Shown here: positions 5,290-63,777 of the stretch, one piece after another
Numbering within the stretch: the stretch's first letter is position 1
How the letters are laid out: each line of letters starts with the position of its first letter
From: Euglena gracilis
Lineage: Eukaryota
Length of the DNA: 64,000 nt
Direction of reading: 5' to 3'
NCBI GenBank assembly: GCA_039621445.1
Contig: CP154954.1
Span: 33,457,455-33,521,454 of the forward strand
The notes under the pieces: model-generated
Seen by the model: only the letters and a program-made list of their open reading frames with translations
Told to the model about the DNA's origin: nothing
Database searches by the model: none
Translations under genes and position numbers: made by a program

Positions 5290-8200
5290 TGGTTCCGGAC
5301 CTCTCCTTGGGGTGTCCCAGTCCCCCACCCAGCGTCTCCAGCTGCAGCCCAGCTTGCCAGCCCCTCTTTGGAGGACCAGCCGACAGGTTTTCGGTGCACA
5401 GCACCCAAATCTTCAGAAAACTGGTCAAAAAATGTTGTCTAAATGGCCATCTGGAGGTTTTCGGGGGATTTTCGGTGCCGGAACATGGTTCTTGAAAGAC
5501 ATCATTTTAGTTGCCTTTTTGGGGGGGCAGTAACCAGCAGCAGCCCCCCATGGGGTTGCTGCTGCGACTGGCCTGGCCCAAATTGGGCGAGGTGCACAGC
5601 CACCCCAGAGGGGGGGCTGCAACTCCAAACAGAGGGAAATGATGGGCGAAGGAGAGGCCCGGGCGGTCCGCCGGAGGGAGGAACTTGTAGGCGCGGCCCG
5701 GGCGGGGGCCGCTGCGCTTCGGGGAGCTGGCCGGGTGGCGGGGCTGGCGGGGCGGGCCCCGGCAGAGCTGGCCGGGACCGCCCAGGGGAGGGTGGGGGGG
5801 TCTGCTTTTAGCCCAAGGGCTGCCCAAGAGCTGGACCGGGTATCGAACGTGGTTGAAATTAAAAGTTGATAAACACGTTTTTGGACGTTTTGGCTGGTTG
5901 GCGATGGTCCAAGGACGGCAGAAAGCATTTTTTTTCCTGATGTGGACCTGTTCTTGCGGAAAAAAGTCCACTTTTTCCGCTCCTGTGGGGGTTTTGGGTT
6001 TCCCGCTCAGCCCTGGGCATGGGGTGTGGCCGGCAACCGCCTCGCCCTCCGCCGCCTCCGCCTTGGCGTCGTCCTCTGGCAGGGCGGTGGCGACGGCCGC
6101 AAAGCCGTCACACTTGGGGGGCGCACAAGGGCAGGCTGTCGGTCAGAGACTGCAGCGGGGAACCCATCGCCCGGACGCGGTGACAGATGGAAGCGAGACA
6201 GGAATGTTGGGATGGGCAGTAATACAAGTCCAGGATCCGGCTCTCTTTTTGGGGGTTGCTGCAAGCCTAAAACGTACATGAGAAATCTTTTGTGAAGGGT
6301 GTGATTTTGTTGATAGAAACCTGACGCTCGATGATTTTTGATTTTGGCTCTAATTCTTGAGTAGCTTCGGAGTGAAAGCACATCCAAAAAGGTAAATATG
6401 CCAGCCTCAAAAAAACAAAAAAAATTAATTGTCCAGCTACCCTTTGGGAGCCAGGAATGAATCGGGGGCAGAGCGGTCCTTCAGCAAACAAAAAAGAAAC
6501 TCTGCTGTTGCAGCACATTGATTAAAAATACGCAGGAAAAATGGGCGAAAAATTCGACATTTTTCCACAAGAGCAGGTGGACATCAGGAAAAAAATGAGT
6601 CCTGGCATCCTGGCATTCAGCAAAAAATGTACTTATGGACTATCAAAAAATGTAGTTAACGACCTTTTAATTTCGACCATGTTCGAGTCCTGGTCTGACT
6701 TTTGGGCGGCCCTTGGGTCAAAATCGGTCCTTAACGGGGAAAAGCAAAAATCCTGTCCCTTATGGAGGGCCCTGATGGGGGGGGGGAAGCTGCACCCTCT
6801 GGGGAGTGGGGTACCTTCCTGGCTCAAGCAACGCCCCGTTTCCTCCAACCATGTATTCAGTAGCATCTCGAACGTATTTGTTACCTGCCACCAACAAGCA
6901 AGGTGCTGCTGAAGACAGCCTGTTTGAGGCCGCAGAGTGCTGGGCCTTTGTGGAATCAAAGCCCCACGTTCCCAACAAAATTCCTCTGCGAAGGGCGAAA
7001 GAAGCCCGACCCTCCAAATATGTTATGGATCACCCTCTTGATCAGAAGACTTGACGTGAAGGAAGACTTGATGACGTGACTTGACTTGCCTTGAAGTTTG
7101 AAGGCGTTGGACAAAAATAAGTGATACCCAATGACCCAAGCAGGAAGGTCTTAGATTTAAAATATGGTCGAGTGCCAGACAAGCAATTGATCACTGATTT
7201 GTTGCTTGAAAAAAGACTGGCCATTGACAAATGTGTCGGTCTGGGTTCATCGGTCTGGGTTTCAAGTCATGTAAAAATGCTGCTCTCCTGGGCCGCTTCT
7301 CCCATCCCCCCCTTTGAGGCGGGACTGGATGCTGACATGGTGGGGGCCCTGGCCGTCCAGTCCCCGAGGCGGGGGAGGACGCAGAGCGCCCGGCGGCGGG
7401 GGTCGGGCCCAGTCAGAATTTGACTTACTATAGAGGGGGGGTTTGGGGTGCCCTGCAGTGCCTAGGAAGGCAGACACTACCTCCCCCCCCCAGGTGGTCG
7501 GTGCATCAAAAATTGCCCAAATTGGGCTACTCTGGACTTCCAGCGCCGGAGTGCTTTTGGCCGAGTGTCCAGTCACTTTTGGTCATATCCCCGGGGGGGC
7601 GGTCGGATCTGGGCACCTTGGGGTGGTACTTAAACAAAAAAAAGTCCTGTTAAAAAATCGAAACCCACATTTCTTGATGTTTTGGGTGAATGGATGATGG
7701 TCCAAGGATGCCAAGTCGACCCATTTCCATTTTCACCAAAATACGTCCATTTCTTTTGGTCATTTTTTTTCCTGCGGGTTTTTTTTAATTGAACGTGAGT
7801 TTTCAACCCTGTTCAATCCCCAGATTGGCTGTTGGCCAACACTTAGGCCTTAGGGGAGGACCTTAAGGGGCGGGGGTGGTGAGAAAAAAATAATCCTTTC
7901 CTTCCCCCCGAGGGGTCGGCCTCACCCTGAAATTCTGCCTGGTCGGGCTGGTCGGGGCGGCTGGCGACGGTGGCGGTGATGAGCTCCGGCAGGGCCGGGC
8001 AGTGGGAGAGGCCGTCGGGGGTGGGCTCCTGGCGGCGCGGCGGCGCGGCACCGGGTTCCCCCCTCGCCGAGGAAGAAACCCACTTTGGCTGTGTTGTGTG
8101 TGTGCTGGCGTCAGCCTTTCCTCGGGAGTGCATCAAAATTGGTCCCCCCCCGAGTCTGATGAAGACAAAAATGACAACGGTCCTCCAATGGCGCAATGGG

Positions 8201-61800: not shown

Positions 61801-63777
61801 GTGGGGACCACCCCATCGGGCCGTCTAAGGGCATTTTCCAAAAAAAATTGGAAGTTCGCACGGAAACCCACACCTGGGCCTCTGGCCCAGGAGCCCCTGG
61901 GGGGTCTGGCCCCGGCCCCGGGGTCTTCCAAGTTAAAAAGAAGCCTGGTCGGGCCAGGCCCAACTGCCCACACTGGGTCCCTGGGTCGTTTAAAAAAAAT
62001 TAAACTTTAAACGTTCAAGTTTAAACTTTAGACTGTCAAGTTAAATTTGGAAATGAGGAAACTCAAAAGTGGAGAAAAGTTTGCTGGCATCCCCAACAAC
62101 GGTTCAGAGGGGAAATTAACTAAGGCTTTGCATTGGTGTTCCAGTTGGCTGTCCCCTCTAAGATTTGCCAGCCATCTCACCAACCTTTTTTGAAAAAGGT
62201 CAGACTGTACACTACTTCCTGTGATGGCAGTGATGGCCAATGTTTCAATAAAATGGCGGATTCCACCTGTCCAGCGAGCAAATTGAGAATATGGGGGGGG
62301 GGGGCATTTCAATCTCAAAAACGTGAGGCCCAATCCTAGCTGGAAGGCATTCAGGCCACCCATGTTGCTTACCTTACCTTAGGAATTTTTTTCTGACGAG
62401 TCATCAAATACGAGCGAAAATGGCAACTTCCCAACATGCAAAATCAGCAGGAGTAGACTGGTGGAGAAAATCTTTCATCTGCGCCAGGGGCTATTTTCAT
62501 TATGCAACATTTTTGATCCTCTAGATCCTGCAACACAGTGCACATTCTGAACAATCATTCGAACTTTTATCCACAAAAAGCACGGAAGCATGAACAAAAG
62601 AGTTTCCACATTTATTTAAAAAATTCGAAAAAGAAGGAACCATAGAAAAAATTGTCCACCAAAAGCAAGTGTGGTGCAAACTTGCAAATACCACGGTTGC
62701 CTGCCCAATTGCATTCACCCATTTTCATGATGCAACAACTGAAAATACAAAAACAAAAATTGGTGTATGTGACTTCAAGATGCCTGTGATTTGCTTTGGT
62801 GTATGCAACTTCATGATGCCTGTGATTTGATTTGCTGGATGTGACTCTGATGAGGTAGAAGATTTCCCTGTGAAATAACATTGAAAATTTTGGAGAATGG
62901 GGGGTCAAAACACAAAAAAAAATGTCCTAAAAATGCACACGCTCCAACATTTTCATTGTGCAAAAAAAATAAAAAACTGTGCAAAAAGAAAAGAAAATTA
63001 TCCAGAATTTGTATTATGAAAAACAGATGCAACTTATGCAACTTGCATACTCTCTCCCCTGTGCAAACCCACTGTGAACAAAAGGCCACATATACCTCTT
63101 CTTGGTGGTGGTACTTGAACTCTTCATATGCATGTTCAAAAACCTCTTGGTTGTTGGTGAACTCCTCGTCCTCCCAAGCACACGTGAGGTGGTGAACAAA
63201 GAGGGTTTTTAGCCAGAAAAGAAATGAGCACCATATTTAAAACAAACAAGAAACAGAACAAAATATTGCATATATCCTTCCTCACATAAATTTGCTTAGC
63301 TGGCAGTGCTTCCCTCTCCCTTCTAACAAATTTTTTCAGCTTTTGGTGCTTTGCCAAGGGTGATGAACTATGAGTCTTAAAATAGTTGTATGAATCTCCA
63401 CACAACCCCTGCTCAACCCATAAAGGGGTGGGTGGTGTCATGTCAATAACAAGAAGAATAATCGGATGACAGAACAAATCACAATTTAATTCTGAATTCT
63501 CCAATTTCCATGCTATATTATACTGGAGCAGAACACAAAAATGAAGGATTACATTTGCAACAACAAAAAAAATTCCTCACCAGCAAGAACATCCGAAGTC
63601 ACCTCGGGTGTGGCCAGTGGATGAAGGGGCCTCCGGAGGTTCTTCTGGGGCCCCTTCCTCTTCCTCCTCCTCGCTGGCCGCCTCCCCTCGGGATTTGGCC
63701 GACCTCCGCTTCGGTTTCGCCTCCTCCGCCTCCTCCGTTGCCTTTGTCCACGACCATCCGTCATTTATGAAGTAGTC
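55802..63777 (-). CDS. KRI1: KRI1-family 40S ribosome biogenesis protein (3' part; 5' end lies beyond the window)
   Basis: Exons ~63777-63616 (DYFINDGW..), 63173-63096 (EDEEFTNNQEVFEHAYEEFKYHHQEE), 61475-61343 (..SLRRKESARKKRRE..), 61150-61070 (..EKSALLKEIAG..), 60815-60808, 60136-59951 (..YDQLMSQVFNDDYYEE..), 59039-58902, 58463-58329, 57882-57796 (GYEDVIAGGTVKCRFKYR), 57638-~57591 (NIDPIRFEGLDTTDLL), ~57063-56982 (LPDATLDSIAPMRYLAAHR..), 56818-56723, 56415-~56224, ~55894-55802. The motif order matches KRI1 as I recall it (YEDII.DLPCRFKYR..FGLSTEEIL..DDKELN). Frame of the last exon is uncertain (stop at 55802 or 55780). Confidence 0.88.
56819..56981 (-). other. Nonconventional/intermediate intron with MITE termini (KRI1)
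   Basis: CGG|GTC CAGGCTTCTTT...AAAGAAGCCTG ACGGG|GAC. 11-bp perfect stem identical to the TIR of the 61778 MITE. Confidence 0.82.
57511..57590. repeat. (GA)40 microsatellite abutting a KRI1 exon
   Basis: Directly visible. Confidence 0.95.
57639..57795 (-). other. Nonconventional intron (KRI1)
   Basis: TAC CGC|GGC CATGC CTCGCC...GGCGAG..GCATG CTCTC|AAC. Pyrimidine|purine at both junctions; restores RFKYR-NIDP. Confidence 0.85.
60137..60807 (-). other. Nonconventional intron formed by a MITE insertion in KRI1
   Basis: Minus strand: ..GGCTGC|GGT CAGGCTT...AAGCCTG GCTGC|GGT GCA. Perfect 8-bp direct repeat GCTGCGGT (plus strand ACCGCAGC at 60134-60141 and 60805-60812). In-frame join K-G-C|G-A-L. 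Confidence 0.85.
60142..60804. mobile_element. hAT-like MITE, TIR CAGGCTT, perfect 8-bp TSD
   Basis: accgcagc|CAGGCTT...AAGCCTG|accgcagc. No ORF. Internal duplicated segment (ttttggaacaaaatcagccaaaaacctg) and a poly-C tract. Confidence 0.85.
61778..61947. mobile_element. hAT-like MITE inside a GT-AG intron of KRI1
   Basis: gttgggcc|CAGGCTTCTTTTTAA...TTAAAAAGAAGCCTG|gtcgggcc (TSD 7/8); 170 bp. Confidence 0.85.
63174..63615 (-). other. Nonconventional intron (KRI1)
   Basis: ACT|GGC CACACCCGAGGTG...CACCTCACGTGTG CTTGG|GAG; 11 of 13 bp pair; in frame. Confidence 0.8.

Follow-up and report, generated by a model that had tools for sequence, protein, structure and literature searches.

In Euglena, nonconventional splicing has been defined genetically: it requires spacers of 3 nt and 5 nt and a CAG/CTG pair, a CGG-CCG variant being included (PMC12501133). 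An origin of nonconventional introns from MITEs (miniature inverted-repeat transposable elements) has been proposed since 2014, when transposable elements were still described as unidentified in euglenids (PMC3935182), and was put forward likewise in later papers (PMC11282704, PMC12501133); in 2025 the origin of the introns was still termed 'unclear', in a study from whose accessible text the word 'duplication' is absent (PMC12501133). The gapC gene of E. agilis contains a recently gained nonconventional intron with eight-nucleotide direct repeats, which its authors read as the result of break repair (PMC4770533). Two E. gracilis transposons, Merlin F1 and F2, have target-site duplications (TSDs) of 8 bp and ends reading GGTACTTGT (PMC8101967); in the literature searched, no other transposons with TSDs of this length were met with for the species. 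Here we describe elements with short terminal inverted repeats (TIRs) of the CAG...CTG type and 8-bp TSDs in 64,000 nucleotides of E. gracilis DNA (contig CP154954.1 of assembly GCA_039621445.1, positions 33,457,455 to 33,521,454), hereafter the window, with coordinates counted from its first letter. A previous examination of the letters of this stretch (the sequence-only reading) had listed eight such elements as a reservoir of potential introns.

The elements are MITEs: they have TIRs and a fixed 8-bp TSD, are small, non-coding and present in several copies, and lie within an intron, in DNA poor in RNA, and near genes. We consider it probable that they are cut-and-paste elements mobilised in trans, most likely by a hAT-like transposase, and that they form a stock of nonconventional introns in a euglenid-type nuclear genome. 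The elements thus support the published proposal of a MITE origin of these introns.

Elements with CAGG ends and 8-bp target-site duplications

The termini and flanks of all eight elements of the sequence-only reading were found as written, and seven of them uphold the combination of TIR and 8-bp TSD (Table 1). The support is strong for 47535-47839, 52078-52387, 61778-61947 and 6469-6774, and moderate for 60142-60804, 33527-33946 and 42737-43171, whereas the eighth, 19663-21668, is doubtful. The CAG...CTG ends ascribed to them hold for most, three elements having one substituted end each. The elements are 170-663 bp long, which is the size of MITEs. Perfect TIRs were seen in 47535-47839 (16 nt), 61778-61947 (15 nt) and the additional element 46380-46920 (at least 18 nt); most others match at 10-13 of 16 positions. 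The flank identity of 47535-47839 peaks at a repeat length (k) of 8 only, and the duplex formed by its ends has a free energy (dG) of -31.7, a value as low as which was reached by none of 400 random pairs. The 16-nt ends of 52078-52387, CATGCTTGTGCTTACC and CAGGCTTGTGCTTAGT, differ by three mismatches, counted by eye. The TIR of 60142-60804 is weak, consisting of CAGGCTT and a gapped continuation (9/16 without gaps); this element is the single CAGGC...GCCTG pair with an 8/8 TSD observed, and 14 shift controls gave none.

Table 1. Elements, sister copies and introns of the window. TSDs are given as left / right flank with the number of matching positions; k, repeat length at which flank identity peaks.
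Position	Strand	Feature	TSD	TIR and ends	Remarks
47535-47839		MITE, family A, youngest copy	ATAAGGGG, 8/8, at 47527-47534 and 47840-47847	CAGGGCGGTCCTTAAG, perfect over 16 bp
6469-6774		MITE, family A, older copy	ATCGGGGG / ATGGGGGG, 7/8	11/16
61778-61947		170-bp MITE	GTTGGGCC / GTCGGGCC, 7/8	15 bp, perfect	k = 8 only
52078-52387		MITE, family C	GTTGAGAA, 8/8	left end CAT, mutated
60142-60804		663-bp element	ACCGCAGC, 8/8		k = 8 only; nested in RNA-verified intron
33527-33946		MITE, family B	GTTGACAC / GCTGACGC, 6/8	left end CAA	k = 8 only
42737-43171		MITE, family D	AGCGAGAC / ATCTAGAC, 6/8	right end GTG, mutated	k = 8 only
46380-46920		additional MITE	CCCCCCCC on both flanks		C8, low-complexity TSD
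7410-7941		additional MITE	GTCGGGCC / GTCGGGCT, 7/8	12/16	passed stringent scan
24821-25058		additional candidate element	CCGTGGCG / CAGTGGCG, 7/8	11/16	WD40 gene region; end-duplex dG -20.1
19663-21668		2-kb candidate, doubtful composite of repeats	7/8	CAGGC/GCCTG (5 nt)
15011-15484		family B sister copy	0/8	right end CAGGGGATTTCTTAAG	between WD40 matches at ~14518-14631 and ~17233-17325
45484-45871		family D sister copy	3/8	decayed right end
45077-45396		family D sister copy	0/8
51946		family D solo left end
57639-57795	minus	RNA-verified nonconventional intron
57882-58327	minus	RNA-verified nonconventional intron
58463-58900	minus	RNA-verified nonconventional intron
59040-59950	minus	RNA-verified nonconventional intron
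60064-61075	minus	RNA-verified nonconventional intron
61149-61340	minus	RNA-verified nonconventional intron
55897-56216	minus	seventh intron, CGG...CCG type			adjacent pieces of one X15 contig (record 1) only

The window was scanned for CAG...CTG pairs 80-3000 bp apart with a TSD of at least 7/8 and a TIR of at least 11/16. Five pairs were found. The mean number in the controls was 0.5 for 10 register shifts and 0.17 both for 30 Markov shuffles and for 12 other terminal triplets, so that the excess is 10- to 30-fold. When the TIR was left out, CAG...CTG pairs with a TSD occurred at the level of chance (50 observed and 43 expected at 7/8 or better, 435 and 395 at 6/8 or better). The excess of matching flanks that the sequence-only reading implied is therefore present once a TIR is also required and absent for the TSD alone, and the support for any element must come from its TIR or from family boundaries. 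With the ends set by TIR or family homology and k varied from 2 to 12, k = 8 was the sole peak of flank identity in 11 of 14 elements, in agreement with the fixed TSD length claimed earlier.

Four families, A to D, were defined by BLAST within the window and pairwise alignments. In family A, 6469-6774 and 47535-47839 are 76% identical across the first ~145 nt, and their gapped alignment spans the elements from terminus to terminus, the flanks being unrelated past ~13 nt. The ends of the family B element 33527-33946 match those of its sister copy, and here too the termini bound the homology. The right half of the family C element 52078-52387 is 88% identical to a truncated copy on the minus strand (31589-31726), with the homology ending precisely at CCTG. 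The four left ends of family D (42737, 45484, 51946 and 45077) share homology that starts precisely at CAGGGCG and have unrelated flanks. There was no sign in the alignments that 52078-52387 had inserted into a family D copy, similarity beyond ~100 nt being noise. A metagenome scan with the 16-nt end of family A returned 104 loci, all of them chance 16- to 19-mers and none a homologue.

The families share a CAGG(G/C) terminus, often with a subterminal CTTRAG ~10 nt inside. The combined motif CAGGN{5,8}CTTRAG is weakly above chance: it occurs four times in the window and 1.33 times on average in shuffles, 3 of 100 of which reach four; with one mismatch allowed the numbers are 13 and 7.7, and 4 of 100 shuffles reach 13. 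The description of the families as internally unrelated is correct only in part: 19663-21668 and 7410-7941 both contain an internal segment of the family A element 47535-47839, the match in 7410-7941 covering 64 nt in reverse orientation. A third fragment of family A, without ends and in reverse orientation, lies at 5821-5978. At 6823-6838, 64 nt after 6469-6774, a decayed right end stands on its own (CGGGGCGTTGCTTGAG), and together these make up a nest of decayed elements. At 31589-31745 (minus) the truncated right half of family C adjoins coding-like sequence (…CTCGTCG/GTGTGT…), and a MITE fragment may here have become the basis of an intron of the conventional or intermediate kind.

A Pfam search of the 328 stop-to-stop open reading frames (ORFs) of at least 95 amino acids in the window detected no transposase domain, as had been noted before, so the elements are non-autonomous; an Rfam search of the window gave no match. 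The earlier view that these are ordinary DNA transposons agrees with the fixed 8-bp register, the TIRs, the sharp family boundaries and the many DNA contigs described below. The graded decay of the TSDs makes a long period of activity plausible, about ten elements being the basis of this estimate.

Nonconventional introns and read evidence

RNA and DNA reads were mapped to positions 51700-62499, a part of the window that includes 52078-52387, 60142-60804 and 61778-61947. The joints of six introns are supported by raw RNA reads of two runs (X21 and X22) and by the RNA-like contig X15. None of the seven RNA-supported introns in these 10.8 kb (gene region 55731-61477, minus strand) is of the GT-AG type, and all seven can be read as 3 nt + XYZ...Z'Y'X' + 5 nt in a register that the junction permits. 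Their terminal triplets are CAG/CTG in three cases and CAT/ATG, CGA/TCG, CAG/ATG and CGG/CCG in one case each, the last belonging to the seventh intron, which reads GGG CGG...CCG CTTAT. The TIRs of the introns match at 10-12 of 16 positions, and four of the seven cores start with CAGG(G/C), as do the elements. The seven introns have the architecture that was defined genetically for Euglena (PMC12501133), and it is on this ground that we call the genome euglenid-type.

The element 60142-60804 lies wholly inside a verified intron of 1012 nt (60064-61075) and has kept its own 8/8 TSD; it is a nested DNA insertion. RNA depth next to 52078-52387 is 0-1.3, and in the bin of 61778-61947 it is 0.07-0.19, compared with 1.3-1.8 in the preceding bin. 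The statement that the elements lie mostly outside exons is thus borne out by RNA for the three of the eight that the mapping covered, one being intronic and two lying where RNA is near zero. Reads do pile up on 52078-52387; most of them continue into unlike sequence and hence come from other copies. Distinct contigs of a DNA run, at 95% identity or more, number 33 over position 52116 and 57 over position 60636, and the word depth of 61778-61947 in this run is 3706 against a baseline of ~50-400. Together with the sister copies of families A-D within the window, the 33-57 contigs over two elements show that the elements are multi-copy.

Poly-C and poly-G tracts are widespread in the window and often lie just inside element ends (60414-60580, 58302-58324, 54600-54625, 52100-52115 and many others). 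RNA reads stop in such tracts with homopolymer loose ends.

Further candidates, genes and other repeats

Besides the eight elements listed earlier, three more were found (Table 1). The ends of 46380-46920, CAGGGATGGATGGGAAGC, are perfect across the 18 terminal nucleotides tested and form a duplex of 21 pairs with a dG of -43.2. In an in-frame test of whether 24821-25058 is a WD40-gene intron, the adjoining ORF parts were not coding-like.

The candidate 19663-21668 is doubtful as a transposon. The dG of its end duplex, -8.3, equals the control median, 0.29 pairs of its class (CAGGC...GCCTG with a TSD of at least 7/8) are expected by chance, and its repeat homology with 39310-40787 is confined to 20329-21625. 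A match of its left end to a second copy was not significant, the score of 21 being below the random mean of 26.5. Among other pairs that were tried, 30742-33367 and 43132-45813 have 8/8 flanks, yet their TIRs match at 8 of 16 positions and they were set aside as chance; 43132-45813 lies within the CTGGCTGG repeat. Four more pairs were likewise rejected as chance, namely 44059-45162, 33872-35708 and, both of them G-rich, 15500-16846 and 56846-58326.

A WD40-repeat gene occupies 12476-26123 on the minus strand; it is at least 12 kb long and has short exons with repeats and elements between them. Pfam WD40 matches are at ~12806, 14518, 17233, 18746, 23136, 23719 and 24540, and 15011-15484 and 19663-21668 both sit between such exon matches, which suggests that 19663-21668 is non-exonic. 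Tandem arrays are present at 39438-40046, 48617-49725, 21071-21514, 4774-4977 and 29917-30100. Their units measure 157-162, ~200-300, 67 and 76 nt, and 21071-21514 and 39438-40046 have the 157/162-nt unit in common. Long (CA)n/(CG)n microsatellites occupy 12502-12836 and 51451-51718. A transposon of another type lies at 54183-55223. It has inverted ends of ~100 nt beginning with CGGTAGACTGGGG and, 8-9 nt outside each of them, a 10-bp direct repeat CACCTTGGAC, a TSD length that is Mutator-like; the DNA run covers it to a very high depth, 13-44 contigs being present at its variant sites. Just upstream of it, at 54120-54162, is a degenerate interstitial telomere-like run of the CCCTAA type.

Probable mobilisation, proposed recruitment as introns and known systems

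An 8-bp TSD, short TIRs and CAG-type termini together make the classic signature of hAT elements, and by its TSD length and CAG terminus the mobilising enzyme is most likely hAT-like. The terminal motif of hAT elements is (C/T)A(A/G)NG and their target preference is nTnnnnAn. The CAGGG ends (47535, 46380, 42737 and 33946) fit the terminal motif. With respect to the target preference, 6 of 11 TSDs have T in position 2 (p about 0.02), a mild likeness to hAT, and 4 of 11 have A in position 7.

A transposase encoded elsewhere would recognise the shared ends, cut the target with an 8-bp stagger and mobilise the elements in trans. Once an element is transcribed, its inverted ends could pair, and the machinery of nonconventional splicing would cut 3 nt ahead of CAG and 5 nt past CTG. 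Excision would then take the element and 8 nt, which is one copy of the TSD, and restore the pre-insertion message exactly: in the case of 47535-47839, removal of GGG, the element and ATAAG would leave ATAAGGGG, the site as it was before insertion. The message would thereby be freed at once of any insertion into an exon, each element would be a ready-made intron, and the non-exonic copies would be a stock from which nonconventional introns are recruited. The arrangement 3 nt + CAG...CTG + 5 nt is present as a potential in the 8 of 11 elements with intact CAG and CTG, and the sum of the two spacers, 3 + 5 = 8, is the TSD length of the elements. It is this shared geometry, with the CAGG(G/C) ends shared with four of the seven introns, that points to the reservoir of potential introns proposed by the sequence-only reading. 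Going one step further, it is possible, and we suggest it tentatively, that nonconventional introns are exonic copies of CAGG-ended MITEs and that the cut at -3/+5 evolved as an RNA mirror of the 8-bp stagger of the transposase. If this were true, intron gain in the lineage would be transposition, any transcribed copy, also in introns and untranslated regions, should leave as a circle, and the excision machinery may recognise transposon ends and could even be transposon-derived.

Several observations weigh against the reading of the elements as hAT-like MITEs that supply introns. The window yielded no transposase, autonomous copy or empty site, so that the hAT label is based on TSD length and the terminal motif, and the CAGGC ends (52387, 60142 and 61778) miss this motif at position 5. 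The sister copies 15011-15484, 45484-45871 and 45077-45396 have termini and no TSD at any length; as their bodies are 68-82% similar to those of their sisters, the loss of the TSDs exceeds what this identity would lead one to expect. It is possible that these copies recombined with others or that their decayed ends were misjudged. The TSDs of different copies are also unusually alike: in family A, ATAAGGGG resembles ATCGGGGG, and the elements 7410-7941 and 61778-61947, although unrelated, both have GTCGGGCC as a flank. Such likeness points to a target-site preference, the reading that we favour, or to a carried repeat. On the side of the introns, the flanks match at chance level with no surviving TSD (2-4/8 in the six read-supported introns, 4/8 in the seventh), and BLAST of the six introns against the window gave weak internal matches for one of them, none to a TSD-flanked element. 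No joint that removes 52078-52387, 60142-60804 or 61778-61947 was seen among the best-supported 15 of 384 RNA joints. It must also be noted that the summed DNA depths over the elements, 10^3-10^4 times those of neighbouring bins, do not amount to copy numbers, and poly-G/C words may have raised them.

It is rather unlikely that the same MITEs were mobilised by a non-hAT transposase which makes an 8-bp duplication. Such a TSD is shared by the P, Merlin, Novosib and Mutator-like superfamilies, the CAGGC ends are off the hAT pattern, no transposase was found in the window, and Merlin with its 8-bp TSD does exist in E. gracilis (PMC8101967). The Merlin TIRs of this species, however, begin with GGTACTTGT and not with CAGG, thus these Merlin elements are not the partner of ours, and the CAG termini combined with short TIRs and 8-bp TSDs speak for hAT, with which the T at TSD position 2 is in mild agreement. 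In a different scheme the introns spread themselves: the excised circular RNA, made up of the core and 8 nt, would be reverse-spliced or reverse-transcribed and re-inserted, and the apparent TSD would come from the geometry of splicing. Nonconventional introns are indeed reported to leave as full-length circles (cited in PMC11282704), and the likeness of TSDs between copies and families looks as if the repeat were partly carried or the target chosen by homology, as does the GTYG with which 4 of 11 TSDs begin, often after GGGG, a pattern noticed post hoc. We hold this scheme to be improbable: within families the flanking 8-mers mostly differ (AGCGAGAC, GGCCAGAC, GTTGGTGC and GGGTCTGG in family D, GTTGAGAA and ATCTGAAT in family C), copies are present in RNA-poor DNA, and a carried 8-mer would not give matching repeats on both sides at unrelated targets.

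That double-strand-break repair captured filler DNA and left the direct repeats behind as scars, as was proposed for the young gapC intron with its 8-nt repeats (PMC4770533), seems to us very improbable, because break repair does not account for the constant length of 8 bp, for CAGG termini and TIRs across families, or for multi-copy families with sharp boundaries. The present elements offer a simpler reading of the gapC junction repeats. Chance matches in sequence rich in repeats and G/C tracts would suit 19663-21668, 30742-33367 and 43132-45813, and CAG...CTG pairs with a TSD alone are indeed at chance level; as an explanation of the elements in general, chance is scarcely credible, being refuted for the class by the joint enrichment of TIR and TSD, the specificity for k = 8 and the family boundaries, while it stands for individual weak candidates. 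The trans-mobilised, most likely hAT-like MITE is our preferred reading.

The MITE hypothesis itself is already published and has so far rested on inverted and junction repeats within genes; the elements described here are new MITE families, and their free, non-exonic copies with intact 8-bp TSDs and CAGG ends provide the missing transposon side of the argument. They make the hypothesis testable, and the spacers of 3 nt and 5 nt would be explained as the two parts of one TSD. In the freely accessible papers searched, we found no TSD-flanked non-intronic copies, no equation of 3 + 5 with the TSD, no assignment to a superfamily and no paper on hAT in Euglena; the PNAS 2025 supplements (junction-repeat length distribution, Datasets S7-S8) may bear on this.

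With the euglenid nonconventional introns the elements share pairing CAG...CTG ends, and the 3 + 5 nt of the introns equal the TSD length of the elements. They differ in lying in an intron or in RNA-poor DNA with intact TSDs and in being spliced only potentially, whereas the verified introns are without TSDs. The 8-bp TSD, the short CAG TIRs, the lack of coding sequence, the length of 170-660 bp and the many copies are as in hAT MITEs (Ac/Ds-like); unlike in these, half of the element ends are CAGGC, and the target motif is partly like nTnnnnAn. The E. gracilis Merlin elements, DNA transposons of a euglenid as well, also make 8-bp TSDs, but their TIRs begin with GGTACTTGT and they encode a DDE_Tnp_IS1595 transposase (PMC8101967), while our elements have CAGG ends and are non-coding. 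The introners of Micromonas, Aureococcus and dinoflagellates are MITE-like DNA transposons in which the TSD and the ends give the excision signals, so that insertion into an exon creates an instant intron; they are removed by the spliceosome and have TSDs of 3-5 bp (PMC11282704). The TSD of the Euglena elements is 8 bp, and their removal would be non-spliceosomal and circle-forming.

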